Position numbers and translations under genes: made by a program
Notes under the pieces: generated by a model
Database searches by the model: none
What the model was told of the DNA's origin: nothing
What the model saw: only the letters and a program-made list of their open reading frames with translations
Shown: positions 5,420-18,611 of the stretch, piece by piece
Position numbering within the stretch: the first letter of the stretch is position 1
Layout of the letters: every line of letters starts with the position of its first letter
From: an uncultured Candidatus Saccharibacteria bacterium
GTDB taxonomy: Bacteria; Patescibacteriota; Saccharimonadia; Saccharimonadales; JAGQNJ01
Direction: 5' to 3'
Assembly: GCA_964577565.1 (NCBI GenBank)
Contig: CAZNZL010000002.1
Span: 10,054 to 74,053, forward strand
DNA: 64,000 nt

Positions 5420-5842
5420 TTATTGGTGTCGTTCACTGAGGGGGTGTAGCTCAGTGGTTAGAGCAGTCGGCTCAATTGACAATTTGGCTAAGTCTAGGCT
5501 GGGATTATGCGTCTCGGCATGGCAGTTATGGCATAACAAGACACATTTTGCTATTTCGCTTAAGATAGGTTTTAGTTTGCGGTTTGATAACGCCCTGACA
5601 TCTAACTGAAATTCCTTTCCATTTAAATGGTGGAATGCTAACGCAGAAAGATTCTTGGCATAACCACACTGTGAACATTTTCCGCCAAGCTTATTTACAA
5701 AATAAAGCTTTCGTTCTAACCCTCTTTTTTTCTGGGCAGGATATGATTGATGGGCGGCATTTTTACACTTAACCGAGCAAAATAATACCTGTTTGCCGCT
5801 AAGTACTTTGTGGCAAATGCTGCAGTTAGACCCAGCTTTCAT
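5420..5842 (-). CDS. HNH homing endonuclease (140 aa), antisense to the intron and tRNA
   Basis: CxxC...CxxC zinc-finger pairs, AFHHLNG, and LLCHNCHAETH (HNH motif). About 123 of 140 codons lie inside the intron. The last 17 codons read antisense through the tRNA 5' exon. Confidence 0.8.
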   Translation of the reverse strand: MKAGSNCSICHKVLSGKQVLFCSVKCKNAAHQSYPAQKKRGLERKLYFVNKLGGKCSQCGYAKNLSALAFHHLNGKEFQLDVRALSNRKLKPILSEIAKCVLLCHNCHAETHNPSLDLAKLSIEPTALTTELHPLSERHQ

Positions 5843-6122
5843 AACTGTATATTATATTAGATACGTCAAAATGTTTAGGGCTGCTTACATGGGTAACCTG
5901 TAAGTATATCTTGTCAAATTCGGGGAAGCCTCTGGCATTTCACCGTGGTAATCCCGAGCCAAGTCCGCCCTGTGGCGGAAAGGTGTAGAGACTGTATGGC
6001 AGGCACCCGTCGGCTGACGGGTGAAGAGACAGTCCAGACCATCAAACCCGAAAGGGGCAACGAAAGTTGTAGTGGTACGCATAACCGATTGGTCGCTGGT
6101 TCAATTCCAGCCACCCCCACCA
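5440..6122 (+). tRNA. tRNA with anticodon CAT (probably tRNA-Ile2/lysidine type, possibly elongator Met), interrupted in the anticodon loop by a 607-nt group I intron
   Basis: 5' exon 5440-5472: gggggtg/ta/gctc-agtggtta-gagc/a/gtcgg/ct. 3' exon 6080-6122: CATaa/ccgat/tggtc/gctgg-ttcaatt-ccagc/caccccc/a/cca. Joined, they give a canonical 76-nt cloverleaf. The D-arm, variable loop and T-arm closely match the E. coli ileX sequence as I recall it. Confidence 0.8.
5473..6079 (+). mobile_element. Group I self-splicing intron (IC3-like core) with an antisense homing-endonuclease gene
   Basis: The 3' third (about 5905-6079) contains gtcaaattcgggGAAgcc, cccgagccaagtccgcc and gaaaggtgtagagactgtatggcaggcaccc. 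These align with the Azoarcus tRNA-Ile intron core (GUCAAAUUCGGCGAAACC, GCCGAGCCAAGC, GAAGGUGUAGAGACUAGACGGCACCC), recalled from memory. GAAA-tetraloop hairpins are present (cccgaaaggg, caacgaaagttg). The last 5'-exon base is U and the last intron base is G. Splice sites are predicted only. Confidence 0.8.
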
Positions 6123-6127
6123 ACCAT

Positions 6128-6152
6128 AAGCACTTTGAGAGAAGTGCTTTTT
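6128..6152 (+). terminator. Intrinsic terminator after tRNA(CAU); copy 1 of a 25-nt repeated hairpin
   Basis: aagcactt-tgagag-aagtgctt followed by ttttt. A near-identical copy is at 7007-7031. Confidence 0.7.
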
Positions 6153-6185: not shown

Positions 6186-6584
6186 CTAAGATGCTCTAAT
6201 AGGCTGTGCCTGGATAGCCACCAGCTCATTTCCATTATCATAAGCGGTAATGTCGCTGAGTGCTCGGTCAAGATCTGGTTCTGATCCTGCAGACCCCCTC
6301 ACTGCTAAAGCACCAGTTTTGCTAAAAACCACCAATTCCACTGACTTATCTATTTCACCCACAGACATACCAACTCGACCAGCACCACTTACCGCAACTG
6401 CCATTAACAATGCTTCATCATAATCGTCTTCGCTAAGCTCGGCTATTTCGTTTGCGTCCCGACAAGGAGGTCTGACTGCGAGCATACTACATGCTCGCTC
6501 CACACCCCTACCTACCACAGTTGCAACTTCGACTCCATGACCAAAGCTTCGAAATTCACCAATCCTTAGTTCTTCTAGTGACAT
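6186..6584 (-). CDS. Hypothetical protein (132 aa from MSLEEL), cargo of cassette 1
   Basis: SD AAAGGAG lies 6-7 nt upstream of the ATG at 6584. No recognisable motif. Confidence 0.55.
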   Translation of the reverse strand: MSLEELRIGEFRSFGHGVEVATVVGRGVERACSMLAVRPPCRDANEIAELSEDDYDEALLMAVAVSGAGRVGMSVGEIDKSVELVVFSKTGALAVRGSAGSEPDLDRALSDITAYDNGNELVAIQAQPIRAS

Positions 6585-6658: not shown

Positions 6659-6915
6659 GGTTCAAAAGTATTCTCGCTATAGTTAATACAACGAATCACT
6701 AGAGTAAATATGGCTCTGGAAACCTGGAATTAGTCGCCTGATTGAGTTCACTCTGCCAAGCTATATCTGGATTATCAAGAAGCCAATCTATAATGAACTG
6801 TAGTGGTTCAGAAGTTTTCGCTTCTGCTCCACCACGTCAGAATTTATTCCAACCAAATACCAAAAAGGCGCAATCAAGTGACGCCTTTTTTATTTGGTCT
6901 AGTATACTTCTTCCT
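6659..6915. repeat. Direct repeat unit A (~257 bp), paralogous to 8695-8956
   Basis: Hand alignment with unit B. The core (ccaa.ctatatctgg...agccaatctataatgaac.gtagtggttcagaagtttt.gc.tctgctccaccacgtc) is roughly 87% identical, with weaker homology on both flanks. Confidence 0.75.
6699..6836 (-). pseudogene. Copy A of the small conserved ORF (45 codons, RGGAEAKTSEPLQFIIDWLLDNPDIAWQSELNQATNSRFPEPYLL), apparently inactivated
   Basis: Same frame as ORF 8735-8959. TGA at 6837-6839 sits where copy B has CGA, and there is no in-frame ATG/GTG/TTG downstream of it. Confidence 0.5.
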
Positions 6916-7006
6916 TTTCAGATTCAAGATTCCTCTCTTGAATCTGGCGATAGCAGTGTTACGCTTCACCCTACAAAAAATCCTCCTTTTGCGGAGATCC
7001 CAAGAA

Positions 7007-7031
7007 AAGCACTTTGAGAGAGGTGCTTTTT
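7007..7031 (+). repeat. Copy 2 of the terminator hairpin seen at 6128-6152
   Basis: aagcactt-tgagag-aggtgctt-ttt: one substitution relative to copy 1, which keeps a G.U pair. Confidence 0.6.
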
Positions 7032-7084
7032 ATGTACCTCGACTCATATAAGGTTTTCAATAGCCTGGAGTCATTACGAGAGTA

Positions 7085-7113
7085 TTGAATTTATAGTGTT
7101 TATATTGTATACT
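7085..7113 (+). promoter_or_regulatory. Near-consensus sigma70 promoter TTGAAT-17 nt-TATACT, 27 nt upstream of the GC-rich ORF
   Basis: TTGAAT at 7085-7090 and TATACT at 7108-7113, in an AT-rich stretch directly abutting the GC-rich coding region. No SD lies before the ATG at 7140. Confidence 0.6.
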
Positions 7114-7139
7114 ACCGTTGTTCTTTCGAACACGTCAGA

Positions 7140-8501
7140 ATGTCCTTCTACAAATCAGGATGGTCACAGCAAATGTCTATCGAAGCGGATACCAAGGCGG
7201 GCGACAAGACGTCTCCTGCTCCCAAGATGCTGGAGCTGTACGGGAACACTAACCCGGACGGCCACAGCGATGCCGTCATCACCGTGAGGTGGTGTGGCAG
7301 CCCTGCGCTCATCGCGGAACTGAAGAAGGAGCAGGTCACCAAGCCCTACGTTCTTTTGGTCGTGAGGCCGTTCACCTGGGTCCAGGAAAGCGGCAAACGA
7401 TTCAAGCAGTACCATGGGCAGAGCCTGCGACGGTTGGTTCCGCTTACCAGTGAGCTGGCCTACATCAGCCTCTCCCGGCCCGGACTGAACGAGATCATGG
7501 CCACGGTGGTCTATAACAAGCATGGCTACGGTCACTTGCTGGAGCTCAATCCCCTGTTCTTGAGTGGTGGCCCCTTCAGCTACTCCACGCACATCTTCGA
7601 CTGGGGAAACCCCAATGGCAGACCCGAGGATCTGTTGACCAAAGTTCGGCGAACAACTCGCAGCAGCAGCGAGTACACGGCCAGGATCGTGACCGCTGCG
7701 ACGGACACGATCGACGTTGAGGTCCCGAAGGAGCTCTTCGCCAAGGAATACCCCAACTGGGTCAAGGCCTTCGTGGGCAAGTTCTTCACGAAGCCGGCAG
7801 TCGACCAGTGTCACATGCGTCGGCGTTTTCTCTGGAGCATGGCCTTCGCCCTGCCGTATTTCATTTTCGCCTACTTTGCCAGGCTGGTACAGCTGGGAGT
7901 GGGCGGTTGGCTCGGGCTACGCAAGATGCATGTCCGAAGCTTCTTTCACCCACTCAAATACGGGTTCAACGACGTCACTACCGACCAGGACAAGCCCATC
8001 TGGTTCTTCAAGGATGACGGTACACCCAGACCCTTCTGGGCCATGTGCCTGAACCCTGTTACGCCGGTGGTGCTTGGTCTCATCTTGTGGGGGATCGGCA
8101 CGATCCACATGACCCGCAACGGGGAGATCGTCGGCATCATCGGCTGGGACTGGTGGCAGTACTTTGTGCTTGCCGCTGTACTTCACGTAGGCTTGGCCTG
8201 TGTGGCGTTGGTCCTGCTCGGTGTGCTTGTGGTCGTTTCTTTCGTGGTGGGCATGTCGCTCACTGCTGCGCTCAAAAGGCAAGCCTCAAGGCGCCTCGAA
8301 AAGCACCGAGCACTTGCGAAGCAGCAGCGGGAGGAACGCAAGCAAGCTGACCTGAAGGCACTCGAGAGGGAGCTGACGGGCATGGCTTGTCAGCCTACGC
8401 CTTCGATGGTTTCGCTCGACGCCCTGCCGAAGGAGAAGCGCACTCTGCGGCTCTACCTCCAGGATACCAAGCGAAAGGTGTGTAGACCCATCGCCCGGTA
8501 A
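7140..8501 (+). CDS. Hypothetical polytopic membrane protein (453 aa), compositionally foreign
   Basis: Longest ORF in a locally GC-rich block, with strong G/C third-position bias and antisense shadow ORFs. About 210-aa soluble N-terminal domain, roughly 4-5 TM helices (aa ~225-375), a charged coiled coil (KRQASRRLEKHRALAKQQREERKQADLKALERE), and a tail ending KRKVCRPIAR. Confidence 0.8.
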   Translation: MSFYKSGWSQQMSIEADTKAGDKTSPAPKMLELYGNTNPDGHSDAVITVRWCGSPALIAELKKEQVTKPYVLLVVRPFTWVQESGKRFKQYHGQSLRRLVPLTSELAYISLSRPGLNEIMATVVYNKHGYGHLLELNPLFLSGGPFSYSTHIFDWGNPNGRPEDLLTKVRRTTRSSSEYTARIVTAATDTIDVEVPKELFAKEYPNWVKAFVGKFFTKPAVDQCHMRRRFLWSMAFALPYFIFAYFARLVQLGVGGWLGLRKMHVRSFFHPLKYGFNDVTTDQDKPIWFFKDDGTPRPFWAMCLNPVTPVVLGLILWGIGTIHMTRNGEIVGIIGWDWWQYFVLAAVLHVGLACVALVLLGVLVVVSFVVGMSLTAALKRQASRRLEKHRALAKQQREERKQADLKALERELTGMACQPTPSMVSLDALPKEKRTLRLYLQDTKRKVCRPIAR

Positions 8502-8694
8502 GAACCCATCGGCTGAGATAGAAGGAGCATTCGGCTCAACCCTATGATCAAGACATGCAGACATAAAAGATCTGCGTGAGAAGCACCCCACCTCGTGCTC
8601 TCATAGGGAATAGACCTGAAAACACTAAGAGTGTTGGCAAATGTCGACACTTCTCACAATTTGTGAGTTTGTGTTACTAGGGTCTTTTTTAATT

Positions 8695-8956
8695 GGTTCA
8701 AAGTAATTTACGCAATACAATAACATCACATTTATCAGAGTAAATAAGGTTCAGGAAGTTGTTGCCTAGCTGCTTCTTGTAACCTACGTTTCCAAACTAT
8801 ATCTGGGTTTTCCATTAGCCAATCTATAATGAACCGTAGTGGTTCAGAAGTTTTAGCCTCTGCTCCACCACGTCGGACGTGAGTCCGACCAAACCAAAAA
8901 CATGCAAATAAATAGCATGTTTTTTTATTTGATCTTCCAGACATCCTCCTCTTCCG
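8695..8956. repeat. Direct repeat unit B (~262 bp), paralogous to 6659-6915
   Basis: See unit A; same orientation. Confidence 0.75.
8735..8944 (-). CDS. Small conserved protein, copy B (69 aa from the ATG at 8944; the track ORF starts at a TTG at 8959)
   Basis: The C-terminal 45 codons align with copy A and show many synonymous differences. GGAGG abuts the ATG at an atypical spacing, so the start is uncertain. Confidence 0.5.
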   Translation of the reverse strand: MSGRSNKKTCYLFACFWFGRTHVRRGGAEAKTSEPLRFIIDWLMENPDIVWKRRLQEAARQQLPEPYLL

Positions 8957-9031
8957 CAAAAACCATTCCCGCTTTTTGCGGAATTATTCATAAAATTATG
9001 CTTTTAGGTTGGGCGCTTGTGCTTTACGCTG

Positions 9032-9472
9032 CTAGCGTTTACGCAGCTGGAAGGTTAGCATAAAGCGATGGGTTGTGCCGTGAGGATCATCCGCAAGATC
9101 CCGGCTTGTAAAGGCGTAATGCTCGTACAGCTTTCTTGCCCTTCTGCCCTCTACGGGCCGTTCTAGTTCTATTTTCCAACCGTTATTAAGGTCACTGTAT
9201 GCTGATTCGTTATAGTAAAACGGCGCAAGCAAGCCACGCTGTTCTAAAAATAATATGATGGCTGTGTGCCTAATATAACTGGTCTGAGCATAGAGGTTAT
9301 TCTCTATAACCGTCAACGTTTTAGGGGAATAATCTCTTTGTTGAACAGTACTGTCAACATAGTCGCTCAAACTGGCCGCTAATTCATGCGCCAGCTTGTC
9401 TAACGCTGCCTCTTCAGCCTCTGGATTAAACGTCGGCTCTTCGGGCAGTGGATACCGTTCTATTGTTCTCAT
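9032..9472 (-). CDS. Hypothetical protein (146 aa)
   Basis: Long ORF with no recognisable motif. A 9-bp hairpin (8954-8981) lies downstream. Confidence 0.6.
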   Translation of the reverse strand: MRTIERYPLPEEPTFNPEAEEAALDKLAHELAASLSDYVDSTVQQRDYSPKTLTVIENNLYAQTSYIRHTAIILFLEQRGLLAPFYYNESAYSDLNNGWKIELERPVEGRRARKLYEHYAFTSRDLADDPHGTTHRFMLTFQLRKR

Positions 9473-9513
9473 ACCCGCATCTTATCGCGTAACCCGGCAC
9501 GGACGCAAGACAC

Positions 9514-9542
9514 AAAAAAGCGCCCCGCCTTAAACGGGGCGC
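9514..9542 (-). terminator. Intrinsic terminator of the YggT-like gene
   Basis: gcgccccg-ccttaaa-cggggcgc 8-bp GC stem. The A-run at 9514-9519 gives a U-run on the minus strand. Confidence 0.75.
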
Positions 9543-9561
9543 ATATGAAAGAAAATAGAAC

Positions 9562-9942
9562 TTAAACTTCGGGGTGGCGGTTACCAATGGTCACCAGCCG
9601 TGCCAATGCCCATGTTATTAATCCGTAAAACAAGATGGCAATTAAGGTCTCGAACTCAAAGCGGGAAACGCCAAACTGTTCTTGGTAATTAAAGATGCCA
9701 AAGAAGGGGGCAGCAAACGGATAGCTTGCCGAATAAATAAAGTCAACGAAGCCATTGCCCCTATTGGCTCCGAGTAACATAAGAATAAAACGCAAGGCCA
9801 ACAGCGCCATTATGACGCCGCCAATAAATGAAATGATTCGTGCCGCAACGTTGGTACTATGCTCGACTGGTGTCGTTTCGTCATCAATTTCATTAACGGT
9901 GTGTAATCTGCCGGTTCGGGTATCTCGAAAGGTCTGTGCCAT
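9562..9942 (-). CDS. YggT-family-like small membrane protein
   Basis: Two TM helices with RFILMLLGAN...FVDFIYSASYPFAAPFFGIF, which resembles YggT/Ycf19. Assignment is from memory only. Confidence 0.55.
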   Translation of the reverse strand: MAQTFRDTRTGRLHTVNEIDDETTPVEHSTNVAARIISFIGGVIMALLALRFILMLLGANRGNGFVDFIYSASYPFAAPFFGIFNYQEQFGVSRFEFETLIAILFYGLITWALARLVTIGNRHPEV

Positions 9943-10019
9943 AAAAAGCTCCTTGTTTAGGTACCTTTACAGTAGCAAGCAGCTGCAGCTTACGCTGTTA
10001 GAAATTGTACAAGCGTATC

Positions 10020-10671: not shown

Positions 10672-11007
10672 ATGCACCGGCAGACTACACGGCATCTTAT
10701 AAAGGATAGGTCTGATTGTATACAAGAAACGCTTCGTATTTTGGGTGACAAATGGACAGCCCTGATTCTGTTTCAGTTACGCAATGCAGACGCCACCTTT
10801 TCGCAACTTGAGGTGTCACTTGAGGGCATTAGCCCCCGTACCCTCAGCCAACGGCTTGACAAGTTAGAGGCTGAAAAAATTATTGTTAAGCGCCGCTACT
10901 GCGAACATCCGCCGCGTTTTCGTTATCACATTACTGACAAAGGCCAAGAATTACAATCGGTTTTACGTAAAATGGCCGACTGGGGCGATAAATATACAAC
11001 CAACTGA
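10672..11007 (+). CDS. HxlR family transcriptional regulator
   Basis: CIQETLRILGDKWTALILFQL...PPRFRYHITDKG winged-helix signature. Divergent from the FMN reductase gene. TATAAT at 10660-10665 lies 6 nt before the ATG, so the mRNA may be leaderless. Confidence 0.85.
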   Translation: MHRQTTRHLIKDRSDCIQETLRILGDKWTALILFQLRNADATFSQLEVSLEGISPRTLSQRLDKLEAEKIIVKRRYCEHPPRFRYHITDKGQELQSVLRKMADWGDKYTTN

Positions 11008-11032: not shown

Positions 11033-13495
11033 TTATAAACGAGGACTCAGCCCCACCGACGTAGCGCCCTTCTTTTCGACAATGACACTGACGCGGTAGC
11101 GCACCAGAGGAATGGTGACCATTTTTAAGTGATGCCAATAGGTGTAGCCGTTAGCAAGAAGCGGATCAGCCTCTAGCAGCGGTTTTTTATGTTTTCGGTA
11201 GTCTGCATAGGTATAAACAGCACCCACTATTAACAATGATCCGATGATACTAAGCAAAGCTGCAATAACGCCGGTATTGGCAAGCATGCCGGAGTTTTCT
11301 GTTGCAAAGCCCACCGGGTCAACAATTATGCCGTTTGGAGTTGCATCGGCATCAAGAGACGAGCCGTCTTGTATGCTATAGGTTAACTTTAAAGCAGTTG
11401 AGGCACCGAGAACCTCTTTGCTTACAGTAGAGCCGTTAATATCCGTATATGTTTTAGTAGTAGCATTGTATTTACGTGGTACGAATTTTTCTGGGTTAGC
11501 ATCAGTTTGATGATGCATGTACATCGTAACGGTAGCGGTATCACCTTGTGAACAGTAAAGCGTGAAGTCGGTGAGTCCGTATGGATAGTCATAGCCAGTA
11601 TCTTTTTGTGGTAGGGTTGTCGCCTTATGGTGCGTTACGGTTCCATTCTCAACACAACCAGCAGTCACTAACGTAGCATAGCTGGCCGTACCGTTTGTAG
11701 TTGTTACCGCAAACGACGTAACCGTGGGTTGAAGTTTGTCGGGCGTGCCGTCGTTATTACCATCACCGTTATTAGGCGCAGCGTCTTCTATTGCATCGGA
11801 TAGGCCATCGGCATCAAAATCATCAGCAGCGCCAACGGAAATATTTCTAGCAAATTCGCTGGTAGCACCAAAGCCAGAACTCGTCGTGTTGTCTATCGCC
11901 GTGGTAGTTGCCGAAAGAAATTTGTTACTAAAGTCACCGCTTACGGTAAGCGTGGCGGTTTTATTGCTACCCGGCGCAACAGCCGTTGCTGCTCCGAGAT
12001 AGGTTTCACCAGGCCCATAGCCAGACATAGAGCGATTATTGCTGGCAAAAAACTCTACACGGTAGGTGTTGCTTGGCGAGTCTGCAGCATCAAGATCATA
12101 CGTAACTGTTAGCTGGTTGCCAACTTGCTGGGCAGTTTTAAGTACCGGGGTGTTAATATAGCCATTGGGACCAGTATCAACGTCACCCGGATCGTTCGGG
12201 GTAGGACCCTTAGAGGTATACTCGTTTGGCCAAAAATCGGGCGGAAAGTCTGTATCCTTACCGTGCACAAGTTCTATGCCAATATCCTTAATAAGTACAC
12301 CGGCAATTTCTTTAGTCTTCATTTTAAATATTGAATTACCCAGGATCGCATTTTTTTGAGGAGTCGCCCCACCACCAATTTGCACAATATCCAAAGAGTT
12401 AACGACAACCCCGCCGGCTACATCGGCAATGACATTAGCCTCATTTTCACCGGTGCCACCAATAAGGTTTTCAGCTGCAAATAATTGCAGAACAACACCC
12501 GGACCCTGGACTATATCGCTGTCATCAATTAACTCACCCTTATAATCAGTTCCAATAAAATTGCCTTGAACCGTATTATGGGTGGTAAATATAACAATAG
12601 CAGCCTCGAGCCCTCCGTTATACACATTAGCCTGGCCAGGCTCTCCGCCGCCTATTGTAATGTTTTGAGCAACCGGGTCATTGCCGAGCAAACTTGAACC
12701 AATCACTGTACCGACAGAGTTTGTCAGCTGCGTTGCGCCGTCTTTACCAATGCCAATATAGTTACCATACATAGTAGATTGGGTGCAGTCCATTGACACT
12801 GCCGAATTATTTTTATTTTGCGAAGCAGTAATAATATTGCGATTTTCAGGGCTACTACCCCCGATAGCCAGGTTTGAACAGCCAGGTGTAGTATTAATGC
12901 CACCCCCATTACCACTGCCCGCCTCTACGCCCGATGGCTTGACGCCAATATAATTACCCTCCAACGTTATATCATTTGAATTTATGACTATTTGGGTGGT
13001 TGTGTAGCTATGGATTGATATACCCCTAACAGTACTGCCGTCAACACCCTGCAAAATTAACCCTGACATAGGCGCCCCGGCATTAGCACCATTAATTTCA
13101 ATAGTGATGGTGCCGTTAAACGGTTCGGGGCTGATGGCGGTATTTGCCTGAGAGCCAGGTTGCGAGTAACCGTCAATAAGCAGGGGCTCGGTTGGCACAG
13201 GCAAAATTCCTGTCGGAGCTATGGTATGAACCCCTGTCCCCGGAATATTAAATTCAATGATATCCACGTCGCCGGAATTGCCATTGCTATTTGCGTCTTC
13301 CATTGCTTTAAACAGCGAGCCTTCGCCCGAATTCGCGGTCGTTGTTACGGTAAATACTTCTGGTGCTGCAGAAGCGTGGCCTCTAAAAAGCAGCAACACT
13401 AGGCAATAAAAAAGTACCATTGCAGCTATAAACAACAACGTAGACGTATCTCGACGTAATGTGTCTAGGTAATTTTTTGCTCCATACATACCCAT
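11033..13495 (-). CDS. Large surface protein paralog 1 (820 aa): signal peptide, beta-helix region, TSP3-like Ca-binding repeats, beta-sandwich region, LANTG sorting signal, TM helix, conserved tail
   Basis: Motifs: APEVFTVTTTANSGEGSL, IDGYSQPGSQANTA, DADGLSDAIEDAAPNNGDGNNDGTPD, then LANTG + hydrophobic segment + YRKHKK + a 48-aa tail. Confidence 0.85.
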   Translation of the reverse strand: MGMYGAKNYLDTLRRDTSTLLFIAAMVLFYCLVLLLFRGHASAAPEVFTVTTTANSGEGSLFKAMEDANSNGNSGDVDIIEFNIPGTGVHTIAPTGILPVPTEPLLIDGYSQPGSQANTAISPEPFNGTITIEINGANAGAPMSGLILQGVDGSTVRGISIHSYTTTQIVINSNDITLEGNYIGVKPSGVEAGSGNGGGINTTPGCSNLAIGGSSPENRNIITASQNKNNSAVSMDCTQSTMYGNYIGIGKDGATQLTNSVGTVIGSSLLGNDPVAQNITIGGGEPGQANVYNGGLEAAIVIFTTHNTVQGNFIGTDYKGELIDDSDIVQGPGVVLQLFAAENLIGGTGENEANVIADVAGGVVVNSLDIVQIGGGATPQKNAILGNSIFKMKTKEIAGVLIKDIGIELVHGKDTDFPPDFWPNEYTSKGPTPNDPGDVDTGPNGYINTPVLKTAQQVGNQLTVTYDLDAADSPSNTYRVEFFASNNRSMSGYGPGETYLGAATAVAPGSNKTATLTVSGDFSNKFLSATTTAIDNTTSSGFGATSEFARNISVGAADDFDADGLSDAIEDAAPNNGDGNNDGTPDKLQPTVTSFAVTTTNGTASYATLVTAGCVENGTVTHHKATTLPQKDTGYDYPYGLTDFTLYCSQGDTATVTMYMHHQTDANPEKFVPRKYNATTKTYTDINGSTVSKEVLGASTALKLTYSIQDGSSLDADATPNGIIVDPVGFATENSGMLANTGVIAALLSIIGSLLIVGAVYTYADYRKHKKPLLEADPLLANGYTYWHHLKMVTIPLVRYRVSVIVEKKGATSVGLSPRL

Positions 13496-13497
13496 GC

Positions 13498-15969
13498 CTA
13501 CCCCAGTTGCGGCGGTGATGCAAGCTTTTCTTTCTTTTCAATACTTATACTAAACCTATACTTGGCCAGCGGAATTGTCACCACCCGTAAATGGTGCCAG
13601 TAAGTGTAGGTACTAGCTAAGAATGGGTCAGCTTCTTGCAAAGGTTTTTTGTGTTTGCGGTAATCAACGTAGGTATAGATAGTGCCGAGTATGATCAGGA
13701 AGCCAGCTGCCACTGCTAACCCTGTTAAGAAGCCGGTATTGGCTAGCACGCCGGTTTGTTCACTAGCCAAACCTACCGGGTCTACAATAATACCGTTTTC
13801 TTCACCGTCGTCGTCTAGGTCGCCACCGTCAGTAAGGCTATAGGTGAGCTTAAGCGCCGTGGAAGCCCCCAAGACTTGACTGGTGAGCGTAGAACCCGGT
13901 ATATCCGAGAACGTATTGGTATGGGCATTAAACTTGCGTGGAATGTAGCGCTGTGGTTCATCTTGGGTATGTACGTACATAGTAACGTTCACGGTATCAC
14001 CCCGTGAGCAGTAAAGGGTGAAGTCGGTTAAACCATAGGGGTACTCGTAACCATTATCTTTAACCTGCAAAGAATTAGCAGCCAGCGATGAAACGGTACC
14101 ATTTTCTGAACAACCTTCAGTCAGGAGGGTTGCGTAGACGGCTGCGCCGTTAACTGTAGCCGTAACGTAGGATGTTACAGTTGGTTGGTTTTTGTCGGGT
14201 ATACCGTCGTTGTTACCATCGCCGTTGTTGGGTGCGGCATCTTCAATAGCGTCTGGTACACCGTCGGCATCAAAGTCGTCGGCTGAACCAACACTGATGT
14301 TTTGGGCAAATTCGCTTGTCGAGCCAAAACCAGAAGGAGTGTCGCCATCAATTGCAGTGGTCGTAGCAGAGAGAGCTTTACCGGTGAAATCACCATTAAC
14401 GGTTAGGGTAGCAGTTTTATTAGTACCAGGCTCAACGCTCGTAGCGGCACCAAGATAGGTCTCGCCCGGACCATAGCCAAAGATAGAGCGTTCATTATTG
14501 GCAAAAAACTCAATTCTATATGTATCGCTAGGCGAATCAGCCGCATCAAGGTCATAGGTGATGGTTAACTGATTGCCAACTTGTTGGGCAGTTTTGAGGA
14601 CGGGGTAATTGATAAAGCCGTTGGGACCATCATCGGTATCGCCGGAGTCATTAGGATTGGGGCCGCGGTTTTCGAAACCGTCTGGCAAGAAATCGCCATT
14701 GCTATCAGTATACATCGCGTGATCTATGCCTAGGTTGGAGTTGCCAATGCCAAGTAAGTTAAATGGTGAGATGCTATGAATAGCATTTCCGAGCACAGCT
14801 ATGTTGGATGATAACGCAGCGATTTCAATTCCAGACCCCTTAACGCCAGCGATGAGGTTACCTTCACCTTCTCCTGTGCCGCCGACTAAACTTGATGGGC
14901 TAATTACAGAGACTATCCCCATGCCGTTAGTTATAGTAGAACGAACTTTGCCAGTATAGTCAGTGCCTATATAATTACCCTGAATGACAGCTGAGTTACC
15001 AGAGATAGATACATTTGCGGTGCCACCAGAAATGAGATTTCTCATACCGGCTTGCGGGCCCCCAACAATCACTTCATTGCTAATAATTTGTATGCCGAAG
15101 CTAAATGGAGCTGTCAAACCATTAGCATCTGCTGCATCTGGTGTTAGATCAGTAACGCCATCTTTGGCGACACCAATATAGTTTCCATAAATAGTAACCC
15201 CGTTGCCTGGCCATATTGCAGCACTTATATGGTTTTGTGAGAAACTGTATACAATATTGCGGTCACTCGGGTCTGTTCCTCCGACAGCACTGTTTTCGCC
15301 AATGGCTAATACCCCGAAGTCATTCCTGCTACTACCCGGTGTTTTGCCATCTGATCGTACTCCTAGGTAGTTTCCGCTTGACTTGGTGTTGCTGCCTACG
15401 AGGACTAGATTGCCGTTAGAGGGATTGCCGTTCGTCAACGTACTGAAGTTATATATTGATAACCCCTTAACTATACTCTCGGAAGCCATTATCGCTATCC
15501 CGCTAGCCTGCTGGGGAGTATCTGGATTGGCAAGCTCAGAGCCGTCAATCTCTATCTTCACTACGCTATTAATTGGTTCGGGACTAGGAGCGGTATTAGC
15601 AGCTGCCCCCGGCTGACTGTAACCGTCTATGGTAACTTTCTCTTCAATAGCTGGAAGGAATGTTTGTGGTTTTATGATATGTGGTCCGTCGCCGGGAATA
15701 TCAAATTCTATGACATCCATGTCAGATCCGTTGCCGTTACTGTTGGCATCGGTAATGGCCTGGCGTAAACTGCCTTCGCCTAAATCATTCGTATTAGTAA
15801 CCGTAAAGGTTTCGGGAGCAGCGTAAAGCGGCTTACTCAAATATAATGCAGTACCCATAGTAAGCAATACGGCTAGAAGCCATAAAAAAACTAGTGAGGA
15901 TGAGTATTTTAGACGTTGTTGTGCTATCATGCAGTCCTGCTTTAAACTTCTTACGTATAAGTATACCAT
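13498..15969 (-). CDS. Large surface protein paralog 2 (823 aa; the true start is probably MIAQQ at about 15930)
   Basis: Same architecture. The 3' ~1.1 kb is about 90-100% identical at the DNA level to paralog 3. Its stop codon lies 2 nt from the start of paralog 1. Confidence 0.85.
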   Translation of the reverse strand: MVYLYVRSLKQDCMIAQQRLKYSSSLVFLWLLAVLLTMGTALYLSKPLYAAPETFTVTNTNDLGEGSLRQAITDANSNGNGSDMDVIEFDIPGDGPHIIKPQTFLPAIEEKVTIDGYSQPGAAANTAPSPEPINSVVKIEIDGSELANPDTPQQASGIAIMASESIVKGLSIYNFSTLTNGNPSNGNLVLVGSNTKSSGNYLGVRSDGKTPGSSRNDFGVLAIGENSAVGGTDPSDRNIVYSFSQNHISAAIWPGNGVTIYGNYIGVAKDGVTDLTPDAADANGLTAPFSFGIQIISNEVIVGGPQAGMRNLISGGTANVSISGNSAVIQGNYIGTDYTGKVRSTITNGMGIVSVISPSSLVGGTGEGEGNLIAGVKGSGIEIAALSSNIAVLGNAIHSISPFNLLGIGNSNLGIDHAMYTDSNGDFLPDGFENRGPNPNDSGDTDDGPNGFINYPVLKTAQQVGNQLTITYDLDAADSPSDTYRIEFFANNERSIFGYGPGETYLGAATSVEPGTNKTATLTVNGDFTGKALSATTTAIDGDTPSGFGSTSEFAQNISVGSADDFDADGVPDAIEDAAPNNGDGNNDGIPDKNQPTVTSYVTATVNGAAVYATLLTEGCSENGTVSSLAANSLQVKDNGYEYPYGLTDFTLYCSRGDTVNVTMYVHTQDEPQRYIPRKFNAHTNTFSDIPGSTLTSQVLGASTALKLTYSLTDGGDLDDDGEENGIIVDPVGLASEQTGVLANTGFLTGLAVAAGFLIILGTIYTYVDYRKHKKPLQEADPFLASTYTYWHHLRVVTIPLAKYRFSISIEKKEKLASPPQLG

Positions 15970-16100
15970 AGCTATAAATCCATTTTATATGTTGACACTA
16001 TCATGGCAGCTGTTTACGTATGTTGTTTAGCGTTTATGATTCAGTTAACCAAAACCCCACTAACCACCACTCTGTCTTTATATTGATTAGTGCCGGTATA

Positions 16101-16167
16101 GCTATAAACAAAAACGTAGATCTATCTAAACCTAATGTAGAAAGACGTTTTTTTCATATCCACCCAT
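16101..16167 (-). pseudogene. Relic of the 5' end of a lost array member
   Basis: 16101-16169 aligns with 13425-13497, the start region of paralog 1 (gctataaaca.aaacgtaga...tttttt...cat.c..cccat.cctacccc). It reads MGGYEKNVFLH-stop versus MGMYGAKNYLD. Confidence 0.55.
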
Positions 16168-16169
16168 AC

Positions 16170-18611
16170 CTACCCCAGTTGCGGCGGTGATGCAAGCTTT
16201 TCTTTCTTTTCTATGCTTATACTAAACCGGTACTTTGCCAACGGAACTGTCACCACCCGTAAATGGTGCCAGTAAGTGTAGTTACTAGCTAAGAATGGGT
16301 CAGCTTCTTGTAAGGGTTTTTTGTGTTTGCGGTAATCGGTATAGGTATATATGACGCCAACTAAAAGCAGAAAACCAACCGCAACTGCTAAACCGGTCAT
16401 GAAACCCGTGTTAGCGAGCACCCCAGAGCTTTCGCTGGCCAAGCCAACGGGGTCAACAATCACGCCATTTTCGGTAGCGTCATCATCAAGGTCACCTCCA
16501 TCAGTAACGCTATAGGTTAGCTTCAACGCGGTTGAAGCACCAAGCACTTGGCTCGTTAGATTTGAGCCAGGAATGTCGGTAAAGGTATTGGTACCAAGGT
16601 TAAACTTACGAGGAATAAAGCGCCGTGGTTCATCTTGGGTATGTACGTACATAGTAACGTTCACGGTATCACCCCGTGAGCAGTAAAGGGTGAAGTCGGT
16701 TAAACCATAGGGGTACTCGTAGCCGTTATCTTTAACTTGCAATGAATTAGCAGCCAGCGACGAAACAGTGCCGTTTTCAGAACAGCCCTCAGTCAAGAAC
16801 GTAGCATAGACGGCCGAACCATTAACCGCGGCTGTAACGTAAGATGTTACGGTTGGTTGGACTTTGTCTGGGATGCCGTCATTGTTGCCGTCGCCATTGT
16901 TAGGTGCGGCATCCTCAACTTCATCAGGCACGCCGTCAGCGTCAAAGTCCTCAACAGAACCAATACTGATATTCTGAGCAAATTCGCTGGTTGAGCCAAA
17001 ACCGCTGTCTGTTGTGTTGTCAATTGCGGTAGTGGTGGCAGACAGGGCTTTATTTGAAAGGTCGCTGCCCACCGTTAGCGTAACGGTCTTATCGGTACCG
17101 GGCGCAACGCTATCAGCTGCACCCAGATATATTTCACCAGGACCATTACCAAAAATTGTCCTACTGTTACTTGCAAAGAACTCTACCCGATACGTATCAC
17201 TCGGCGAATCTGCGGCATCAAGATCATACGTTATGGTTAGCTGGTTGCCAACTTGCTGGGCGGTTTTAAGAACGGGTGTGTTAATAAAGCCATTAGGGCC
17301 AGTGTCAGTATCGCCTTCGTCGTTTTGGGTAGGACCAGCCGACTCAATAGTATTGGGCACGCTATCTGGCGGGTTGTCACTATCATCGGTTTTTAATAAA
17401 TCGATTCCAAGATTGACCTCACCCAAATCGAGATAGCCATACACGGCAACATCTCTAATAGAGTTTCTAAGCATTGTATTTTTTGTAATTGGCGCGGTAA
17501 TGTCTAGGGCGGATAGACTATTTTCTATAACACTAATACCAAAGCCCCCGATTCCAGCAATGGTGTTACCCTCGTTGTCGCTTGTTCCACCAATAAGGTT
17601 ATTTGAAGCTCCCAGCAACATGGTTACACCTCCGCCTTTTGAAAAATTGTCGTGAGCGTTACCTTGGTAATCGGATGCAATGAAATTACCCTGAACTATA
17701 TTATTGTTTTCAAAAATTACAATATTTACAGCTTTAGCATTTGCAATAACATTGGCTTCTCCGGTATCAGGACCACCAATGACATTATTGGTACTTCGGC
17801 TCTGGCCAGGGCTTCCAACAGAAATAGTAGTATCATAATTACCTATCTTTGTAACACCATCTGGTGCAACACCTATAAAGTTACCCTTCACGAAACTATC
17901 AGTACAAGCAAGCATAACAGCCGAACGCCCCGTTGTTTGTTCGCCGGCAATTACGTTTCTGTCCCGAGGATCGGTGCCTCCAATTTGTGCACCCGAAGCA
18001 GTATTTTGGCAGTTTATACCACTGTCAGTACCCTCTAGAGGCTGAAATGTACCTTGAGCATCAATCTGCAAGTAATTACCACTTATCTTTACATCATTGG
18101 CCCCTATAAAAATCTGAGCAAATTTTGCCCCCCTAATAGATAGACCCGAGATTACGCTTTCATCAGCAGAAATCTCCAGTGCGCTTTCTTCAGATGTGGT
18201 CGCGACAATTTCAATACGTATTGTTCCGTTTAAGGGGCTAGGCGCAATTGCAGTATTGGCAGCGGCACCTGTCTGAGAATAGCCATCTATAGTAACCTTT
18301 TCTGTAATGGCGGGGAGCCCTGACTCGAGCGATATGGTGTGTACGCCGTCGCCAGGAATATCAAATTCTATGACATCCATGTCATCCGGGTTATTATTAT
18401 CGTTCGCGGCAAGAATTGCAGCCCGCAATGATCCATCACCTGAGTCATTCGTGTTAGTAACCGTAAAGGTTTCGGGAGCAGCTAAAGCGGTATCGCGGGT
18501 TAGTAGCAAAAAACTAAAAGTTATTAAAAGTACCACATAAAACCACGTCAAAATAGATGGCGTAAGGTGAGCTGCTTGTGATCTTTTTTTCATATCCCTA
18601 AATTTAAGCAT
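16170..18611 (-). CDS. Large surface protein paralog 3 (813 aa)
   Basis: Same architecture: GDGSLRAAILAANDN, IDGYSQTGAAANTA, TSP3-like repeat, LANTG + TM + YRKHKK + tail. Confidence 0.85.
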   Translation of the reverse strand: MLKFRDMKKRSQAAHLTPSILTWFYVVLLITFSFLLLTRDTALAAPETFTVTNTNDSGDGSLRAAILAANDNNNPDDMDVIEFDIPGDGVHTISLESGLPAITEKVTIDGYSQTGAAANTAIAPSPLNGTIRIEIVATTSEESALEISADESVISGLSIRGAKFAQIFIGANDVKISGNYLQIDAQGTFQPLEGTDSGINCQNTASGAQIGGTDPRDRNVIAGEQTTGRSAVMLACTDSFVKGNFIGVAPDGVTKIGNYDTTISVGSPGQSRSTNNVIGGPDTGEANVIANAKAVNIVIFENNNIVQGNFIASDYQGNAHDNFSKGGGVTMLLGASNNLIGGTSDNEGNTIAGIGGFGISVIENSLSALDITAPITKNTMLRNSIRDVAVYGYLDLGEVNLGIDLLKTDDSDNPPDSVPNTIESAGPTQNDEGDTDTGPNGFINTPVLKTAQQVGNQLTITYDLDAADSPSDTYRVEFFASNSRTIFGNGPGEIYLGAADSVAPGTDKTVTLTVGSDLSNKALSATTTAIDNTTDSGFGSTSEFAQNISIGSVEDFDADGVPDEVEDAAPNNGDGNNDGIPDKVQPTVTSYVTAAVNGSAVYATFLTEGCSENGTVSSLAANSLQVKDNGYEYPYGLTDFTLYCSRGDTVNVTMYVHTQDEPRRFIPRKFNLGTNTFTDIPGSNLTSQVLGASTALKLTYSVTDGGDLDDDATENGVIVDPVGLASESSGVLANTGFMTGLAVAVGFLLLVGVIYTYTDYRKHKKPLQEADPFLASNYTYWHHLRVVTVPLAKYRFSISIEKKEKLASPPQLG

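Follow-up and report, generated by a model that had tools for sequence, protein, structure and literature searches.

The large serine integrases of phages have their own attachment site (attP) outside the integrase gene and a bacterial attachment site (attB) that normally lies inside a protein-coding gene, and their directionality depends on a separate recombination directionality factor (RDF) protein. The integration target of phage Mx8, like that of the locus described below, overlaps a transfer RNA (tRNA) gene. In Mx8, attP is located in the 3′ part of int, the gene of the integrase IntP, and integration gives this gene a new 3′ end (PMC6070905); the prophage int gene acquires a shorter C-terminus, and the original 3′ end is found at the other border (Tojo et al. 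1996, cited in PMC4383910). The ‘suicidal’ (type I) integrases of the SSV type, which belong to archaeal viruses and plasmids, have attP in their open reading frame (ORF), so that integration into a tRNA gene partitions the integrase gene into two pieces, one at each border of the element, a disruption proposed to act as directionality control in a type described as ‘so far restricted to archaea’ (PMC7253208). In the integration-dependent immunity of mycobacteriophage BPs and its relatives, attP lies inside a phage gene and integration removes a C-terminal segment of the product, changing its stability or activity (PMC4557955). Serine integrases were stated in 2014 as not known to target tRNA genes (PMC4383910). 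Here, a pair of diverged direct repeats, units A and B, is analysed in a stretch of 64,000 nucleotides (nt), the window, from an uncultured Candidatus Saccharibacteria bacterium (assembly GCA_964577565.1, contig CAZNZL010000002.1, positions 10,054 to 74,053). Units A and B are most probably relics of the right-hand attachment site (attR type) of two integrative elements inserted at the 3′ end of a tRNA(CAU) gene, which belonged to a family whose large serine recombinase (LSR) gene spans its own attP.

The central evidence comes from L003, a locus in another Saccharibacteria metagenome-assembled genome (MAG), where a serine integrase gene is preserved in two pieces (the loci compared with the window are designated by L numbers). 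The ORF at 14509-16074 of L003, 521 aa in this integrated form, matches the Resolvase (5e-22) and Recombinase (5e-5) domains, enters a tRNA(CAU) gene in antisense from the 3′ side and terminates five codons past the position expected for the onset of its C-terminal tail. L003-type elements occur in the LacPavin_0818_WC45 metagenome and in SRR25046534. It ends in ..FASLVKATELSSGGGGKN before the stop, and these last codons are the antisense of the tRNA 3′ end ..TTCCACCCCCACCAGA; the final codons read GGT GGG GGT GGA AAG AAT TGA, the antisense of TTCAATTCTTTCCACCCCCACC. The 45-codon frame found in the repeats of the window, hereafter the module, is present in L003 6 kb upstream of the integrase end and in the same orientation. 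Both junctions carry a common 9-bp core, TCTGGTGGG, which is the reverse complement of the tRNA end CCCACCAGA, and joining the body and the module at this core yields an uninterrupted integrase ORF of 559 amino acids (aa). The reciprocal join, in which the tRNA 3′ end is followed by GAAAAGTAGAAG and a CCACTC/GAGTGG-TTTTT terminator, is a normal empty target site. The predicted attP junction reads ..GAATTATCGTCTGGTGGGACAGAAGCG.. (in its longer form GCCACTGAATTATCGTCTGGTGGGACAGAAGCGAAAAGTTCTGAACC) and the predicted empty attB is TTCAATTCTTTCCACCCCCACCAGAAAAGTAGAAGCCACTC. Because joining the pieces restores both the ORF and the tRNA with its terminator, attP is placed inside the integrase ORF, with the tail split off on integration. 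The split geometry, the in-frame reconstruction and the restoration of the tRNA and terminator are all shown for L003. The reconstructed protein aligns with the SPbeta integrase over residues 16-462 and is 21-23% identical to phage serine integrases, with the tail outside every match.

The connection between integrase and module is also found unbroken. Locus L011 consists of one contiguous fragment whose residues 1-109 match residues 401-518 of the L003 integrase (46% identity, E 8e-30) and which continues in frame into the 45-aa module (hidden Markov model (HMM) E 2e-6); the match to L003 stops at ..ELSSGG, the exact onset of the module in L011. The C-terminus of the L012 integrase is likewise continuous with the module, and in these two more distant members ~60 further codons are conserved upstream of it. 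In L012 the module is followed, after 7.3 kb, by an integrase 5′ part 70% identical to that of L003. The homology of the 45 codons to the C-terminal tail of a Saccharibacteria LSR is shown by these comparisons.

The window contains one pair of direct repeats of this kind, unit A (6659-6915) and unit B (8695-8956), whose minus strands have a 45-codon frame in common, with translations identical to those first quoted. The initial annotation is borne out on this point by a repeat finder (6756-6857 against 8792-8893; 102 nt, 85% identity, spacing 2036), by blastn (111 nt, 84.7% identity) and by a MAFFT alignment (~320 nt, 81% column identity). Its figure of ~87% core identity applies to a core of ~100 nt only, and the likeness of the two units, indels included, runs further, to ~6997 in A and ~8985 in B. 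No third copy of the repeat was detected in the window by tblastn and blastn. Within the frame, A and B share 74% nt and 69% aa identity; they differ in 24 codons (stop counted), ten of them synonymously, with 11/6/18 differences at the three codon positions and changes at the third position only in the final seven codons, exactly the pattern reported initially. The Nei-Gojobori method gives dS 0.77, dN 0.23 and omega 0.29, and Fisher's test on synonymous versus non-synonymous changes gives p = 0.004. The coding signature in the A/B frame is real, and it is general to the copies of the module, because codon-position bias and omega hold across the eight full copies (variable sites per codon position 26/17/36; 27 computable pairwise dN/dS values from 0.05 to 0.47, one pair having a saturated dS). 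The distance between A and B equals that between copies of different species, and L003 is nearer to A than B is; the two relics derive from two different integrase genes.

The peptide of the initial annotation does have relatives in other Saccharibacteria MAGs and in metagenome contigs. A degenerate-pattern scan of one genome per species recovered three copies (L002-L004), and L010 added one from a metagenome. Four short ORFs came from a profile search of 5.8 billion proteins, and an exhaustive HMM search of 1.84 billion representative proteins returned 15 matches to the tail: thirteen proteins of 47-96 aa with the domain at their C-terminus, a 762-aa protein of L002 and a spurious repeat protein. 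The near-absence of long tail-bearing proteins from databases is what one would expect if almost all assembled copies are integrated and therefore split. A first protein search with the 74-aa B ORF as query found nothing, and neither the peptide nor the family alignment matched Pfam, NCBIfam, PHROGs or PDB sequences; an Ntox34 match of one family member (E 0.16) was taken as chance. The homology of module copies always begins at TGGTGG(A/G)GCAGAAGC and ends ~45 nt beyond the double stop, at TTGAACC, where the cross-genome homology of the unit A box also stops. The L004 copy contains an internal TAA and the L008 copy is truncated. Structure prediction for the tail gives two amphipathic helices that are not hydrophobic, with moderate confidence (predicted local distance difference test (pLDDT) score 69).

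At seven of nine distinct loci (the window, L002, L003, L004, L006, L008 and L010), the opposite strand carries one and the same tRNA 3′ end (..CCACCCCCACCA) at 0.7-6 kb downstream of the module; no tRNA was seen in the short or partial sequence of L009, L011 and L012/L013. The seemingly inverted modules of L006 and L010 were resolved by a second tRNA(CAU) copy without an intron, which is convergent with the module as expected. ARAGORN calls the intron-less orthologue in these two loci as tRNA-Met(CAU) and does not call the intron-split gene of the window. Intron-split tRNA genes are already known in Patescibacteria (PMC13011429). In L002, perfect 19-bp direct repeats coincide with the module boundary (9987-10005) and the tRNA end (10948-10966), 961 bp apart; the 762-aa ‘fusion’ therefore results from read-through of the neighbouring ORF into an integrase 3′ fragment. 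In one sample, Logan contigs reproduce the order A, island, B of the window.

Most orphan copies have a hairpin just upstream of the module, with an A-run on its 5′ side, which on the opposite strand is an intrinsic terminator. In the window such hairpins occupy matching positions with differing stems (GGCGC..GACGCC at 6867-6885 in A, CATGC..GCATG at 8901-8919 in B), as does a second pair further out, so that the initial description of them stands. What does not stand is their attribution to the gene. In L008, the trailer CAAATTTGCCGATC..GATCGGCTTTTT, with its GCCGATC..GATCGGC terminator, lies directly 3′ of the tRNA itself; a hairpin of the same type follows the module in L009a and L009b, and a degenerate form, GCCCATC..GATCGGC, is found in L006. 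Natural trailers of the type found in unit A (T0′) follow the tRNA in L004 and L008. Because the L008 tRNA and the L009 and L006 modules carry the same type of trailer, the data support the upstream hairpins of A and B being displaced tRNA trailer terminators. The features of the window are collected in Table 1.

Table 1. Features of the tRNA(CAU) locus and of repeat units A and B, in coordinates of the window
Feature	Position	Strand	Remarks
tRNA(CAU) gene	5440-6122	+	integration target, attB side
tRNA(CAU) 5′ exon	5440-5474	+	GGGGGTGTAGCTCAGTGGTTAGAGCAGTCGGCTCA, found at 5440
Group I intron inside tRNA(CAU)	5475-6081	+	Rfam match 5857-6060, 68.6 bits
tRNA(CAU) 3′ exon	6082-6122	+	ends ..CACCCCCACCA
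Terminator hairpin Tx′	6128-6152	+	directly 3′ of tRNA; 24/25-identical copy at 7007-7031
132-aa ORF	6186-6584	-	good Shine-Dalgarno sequence AAAGGAGAACGTAATG; no known family
Unit A non-coding box	6659-6698	-	conserved; after double stop (..TTAACTATAGCGAGAATACTTTTGAACC); read as 3′ untranslated region (UTR) of integrase gene
Relic A	6699-6836	-	read as last 45 codons and stop of serine-integrase gene, RGGAEAKTSEPLQFIIDWLLDNPDIAWQSELNQATNSRFPEPYLL then stop; TGA directly upstream
Relic A recombination core	6829-6834	+	CCACCA (TGGTGG in integrase frame); matches tRNA 3′ end 6117-6122
Putative displaced tRNA trailer T0′ of unit A	6837-6997	+	begins CGTCAGAATTT..
Parts of T0′	6862-6891; 6920-6945; 6982-6997	+	intrinsic terminator (first); hairpins (second and third)
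Second terminator copy Tx	7007-7031	+	start of second tandem unit
GC-rich cargo cassette	7102-8694	+	promoter-like site 7085-7113, terminator 8653-8667
GC-rich cassette ORF	7140-8501	+	453 aa (442 aa from second ATG), membrane protein, no family
Unit B non-coding box	8695-8734	-	..TTATTGTATTGCGTAAATTACTTTGAACC; more diverged than box of A
Relic B	8735-8872	-	read as last 45 codons and stop of second, diverged integrase gene, RGGAEAKTSEPLRFIIDWLMENPDIVWKRRLQEAARQQLPEPYLL then stop
Relic B recombination core	8865-8870	+	CCACCA on tRNA strand
Putative displaced tRNA trailer T0 of unit B	8873-8985	+	CGTCGGACG..; terminator 8896-8926, hairpin 8953-8982
146-aa flank gene	9032-9472	-	its end abuts trailer T0

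Under the proposed mechanism, the LSR gene of this family of Saccharibacteria elements would hold attP within its own frame, ~45 codons ahead of the stop. When attP recombines with the tRNA end at the common core TGGTGG/CCACCA, the integrase gene would be cut in two. The integrase body would remain by the tRNA, ending in a few codons read antisense from it, and the last 45 codons together with the 3′ UTR box would be carried to the far end of the element, where they would abut the former trailer and terminator of the tRNA. The tail would lack a start codon because it would be translated solely within the intact gene of the excised circle, and A and B would look purified because their divergence dates from a time when each belonged to its own working integrase gene. 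Neither integrase body would have survived in the window, leaving the cargo (the 132-aa ORF and the GC-rich cassette) and two relics with their own trailers. The 132-aa ORF, being everything that lies between the tRNA (with its terminator) and relic A, is presumed to be cargo of a decayed element. We infer that the elements excise and re-integrate and that loss of the tail changes the activity or stability of the integrase.

The balance leans slightly towards a functional extension of this mechanism, in which small elements of Saccharibacteria use an LSR that targets the tRNA(CAU) 3′ end, spans its own attP and has a clipped two-helix tail of 45 aa as a built-in switch. The excised circle would then be the sole source of full-length integrase, and the integrated copy the sole source of the clipped form; clipping would switch integrase activity, stability or directionality, without or besides a separate RDF. 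A less likely addition is that incoming integrases are hindered by expressed orphan tails, copy B for instance.

Several observations weigh against the interpretation of A and B as relics of integration at the tRNA. Scans of viral contigs for the module and for the integrase returned nothing, neither an excised circle nor an intact full-length integrase contig, and mobility rests on reconstruction. There is no integrase body anywhere in the window, and A and B are assigned by homology and geometry only. Loci L011, L012 and L002 retain integrase codons upstream of the usual break, so that not every relic is a clean attR. Serial integration at one tRNA predicts a single displaced trailer, whereas A and B each have their own, diverged one; in addition, a near-identical terminator precedes each cargo (6128-6152 and 7007-7031). 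An extra event is needed to account for this layout. The trailers of A and B are homologous, with compensated stems. As for the terminator hairpin of 25 nt, it has only these two copies in the window, a repetition that suggests tandem terminator-cargo-relic-trailer units. The layout could stem from a pair of tandem tRNA(CAU) copies, both of which were targeted and the second of which later disappeared; L006 carries two related tRNA(CAU) copies. An alternative for the double trailers is the import of a whole unit from a relative.

Among the competing explanations, the one that survives best, although very improbable, is that the module is a true stand-alone small gene of ~47-51 aa in Saccharibacteria, functional in B and a fresh pseudogene in A, which corresponds to the resident small gene of the initial annotation. 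All copies are under purifying selection and have a common stop position, an ATG or TTG occurs 3-6 codons upstream in P0001, P0003, P0012 and P0013, and the ATG of copy B adjoins a GAGGAGG motif. However, no conserved start codon or Shine-Dalgarno sequence was found among the copies compared, though the genome uses such a sequence before the 132-aa ORF. Copy A has TGA where B has CGA and no in-frame start codon, as initially noted, and like the L010 copy it offers no possible start at all. The far-off TTG/ATG of copy B does exist, as claimed at the outset, but it is fortuitous, its frame passing through the terminator hairpin. A terminator hairpin lies 9-40 nt upstream of the modules, and the ATG of L006 falls within it. 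The N-terminal extensions are mutually unrelated, and the sequence runs on from an LSR C-terminus in L011 and L012, while in L003 it makes the integrase complete and in frame. A detached C-terminal end of an LSR accounts for these features in place of a resident gene.

The 762-aa ORF of L002, which is fn3/IgA-protease-like and ends in the module, together with the large surface-protein genes upstream in the window, L003 and L004, would fit a module that forms the conserved 3′ end of a variable surface-protein gene, with orphan copies kept as anchors for swapping. This is highly improbable. The L002 protein is the only long one with the tail among the 1.84 billion representatives, its residues before the tail (VEVSQIGG) resemble TELSSGG of the integrase, its junction is one arm of the 19-bp att repeat, and the other large proteins have no tail.

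To the same small degree of probability, the unit might be a plus-strand non-coding RNA or antisense regulator extending from a promoter-like box to a terminator, with a periodicity left over from a former coding role. In its favour are a hairpin and T-run after the antisense strand in most copies, a conserved box before it and a weak Rfam match to STnc40 at 6823-6891 (E 0.03, below threshold). Against this, RNAalifold detects no covarying structure for either strand (~-10 kcal/mol over 190 nt, covariation ~zero, one compensated pair), no promoter is predicted at A or B, the terminators are accounted for as tRNA trailers and the third-position bias speaks for selection at the protein level.

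The repeats do bracket a compositionally foreign gene, as first claimed: the ORF of the cassette between them has 58-60% GC, compared with ~40-45% in the flanks. A homologue in L015 (ORF 178-1509; 70% aa and 76% nt identity, 58.5% GC) matches 7102-8694, ending exactly where unit B begins, with another neighbour and no module beyond. The GC-rich cassette is cargo independent of the relics. The least probable of the explanations, and one as good as refuted, is the one also put forward initially, in which A and B are an att duplication created by insertion of the GC-rich gene and the island itself is mobile: the bracketing fits, but the coding parts differ by 26% with a dS like that of copies from different species, the L015 cassette keeps the 8694/8695 boundary without a module, and no recombinase lies between the repeats. 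The other initial suggestion, repeated use of a boundary module at a hot spot for cargo, comes near to the data, with the amendment that the module is the relic 3′ end of an integrase gene. The gene of 453 aa keeps ~58% GC in two Saccharibacteria lineages with flanks of 41-48% GC, and its product has only 10 relatives in 5.8 billion proteins, none with a Pfam family.

Other candidates were rejected. Tagging like that by transfer-messenger RNA (tmRNA), considered for the start-less frame, double stop and CCACCA, was discarded since neither ARAGORN nor Rfam detects a tmRNA or tRNA at the module and CCACCA is on the strand opposite to the ORF, where it proved to be the att core. A template/variable repeat pair of a diversity-generating retroelement does not fit the A/B mismatches, which involve all bases and are not adenine-specific; no reverse transcriptase was found among the scanned neighbours. 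A plus-strand small RNA (sRNA) shows no covariation, an antisense ORF has the wrong codon-position bias and contains stops, and a type I toxin-antitoxin or structured sRNA repeat has neither covarying structure nor a hydrophobic peptide. The palindrome of a tyrosine-recombinase core, GGAGCAGAAG-CGAAAA-CTTCTGAACC, is lost in L011 and L012, and no tyrosine recombinase is nearby. Finally, the module is not a detached domain of an upstream gene, the upstream neighbours being mutually unrelated.

Further observations concern the tRNA locus and the loci related to it. The group I intron of the window tRNA(CAU), ~607 nt long, contains an antisense HNH-type ORF (5420-5842, minus strand) whose final 13 codons are the antisense of the tRNA 5′ exon and which is conserved, with 75-81% identity, in L002, L003 and L008. 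Loci L006 and L008 have in common a 97%-identical protein of 260 aa, and their tRNA/HNH segment and module are arranged in a different order and orientation; in L008 the module is cut at about codon 25, where the 260-aa gene begins, which suggests rearrangement with a breakpoint inside the relic. At 7374-8264 of L012, an AAA_33 kinase-like ORF is followed by a single in-frame TAA and then by an integrase 3′ fragment of 108 codons that includes the module, an arrangement that recurs in a second sample (L013). L009 provides a second module-gene-module case (1137-2221), with a cargo unrelated to that of the window: a 247-aa ORF that has an orthologue in the L003 gene at 9058-9813 and contains a PD-(D/E)xK-like GDVDL..QVKAS motif. 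Both L009 modules have the GCCGATC trailer hairpin, and the contig ends within the second module. The Saccharibacteria-type metagenome contig L010 contains a LOOT RNA match in Rfam at 259-377 (81.5 bits). Contigs L001 and L014 (Logan SRR7082976) overlap at window positions 8952-8974 only, inside the second hairpin of the trailer of B, which could be a graph branch due to strain variation or a plain assembly break at the palindrome.

The neighbouring genes of the window (a DivIC homologue, SDR, FMN reductase, HxlR regulator, Dus, Mur ligase and three paralogues of ~820 aa) identify a Saccharibacteria-type genome. The three paralogues, in tandem on the minus strand at 11033-18611 between Dus and the hot spot, encode what are probably variable surface proteins, of 813-823 aa and with 52-63% identity; one of them has a match to the choice-of-anchor U domain.

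The interpretation of A and B as integrase relics explains start-less, seemingly purified mini-ORFs at the edges of variable regions and gives precise borders to a tRNA-linked hot spot of gene exchange in Saccharibacteria, a lineage with poorly known mobile elements. Gene callers label such relics as hypothetical small proteins, and their recognition avoids the definition of false ‘new peptide families’. Since serine integrases are genome-engineering tools, a natural variant with a C-terminal tail toggled by integration bears on the control of integrase directionality. In the literature searched, the coverage of which is limited and gives no proof of novelty, no serine integrase with attP inside its own ORF was found. 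A serine integrase with a tRNA target and its own attP inside is a new variant, and the apparent splitting of an integrase gene on insertion is unusual both for bacteria and for the serine class of enzymes.

Compared with SPbeta SprA, phiC31, Bxb1 and TP901-1, the elements described here share the succession of resolvase, recombinase and zinc ribbon with coiled coil, as well as a short att core. They differ from the phage LSRs in that attP is inside the integrase gene and attB at a tRNA gene; if true, serine integrases that use a tRNA gene as attB would be added to the known repertoire. With BPs they share the loss of a C-terminal segment on integration, but there the truncated gene is that of the repressor and the integrase is a tyrosine recombinase. 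The SSV-type integrases are similar in having attP inside the integrase ORF, a tRNA target and gene pieces that persist as relics by tRNA genes. They are, however, tyrosine recombinases, whereas the L003 ORF matches the serine Resolvase and Recombinase Pfam families, and both SSV-type fragments are inactive, whereas the large fragment retains here all catalytic and DNA-binding domains. The likeness to Mx8 IntP lies in the position of attP within the 3′ part of the integrase gene and in a changed C-terminus, which alters the behaviour of the Mx8 integrase. IntP is a tyrosine recombinase from a tailed phage of a deltaproteobacterium, unlike the LSR on small Saccharibacteria elements, which loses no more than a 45-aa tail that extends past the canonical LSR fold. 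Should the split be functional, regulation by an integrase gene that spans attP, known from the tyrosine recombinases of archaea and Mx8, would reach serine recombinases and the candidate phyla radiation, and in the Saccharibacteria integrases the serine class would have its counterpart to Mx8 IntP/IntX and the archaeal ‘suicidal’ integrases.

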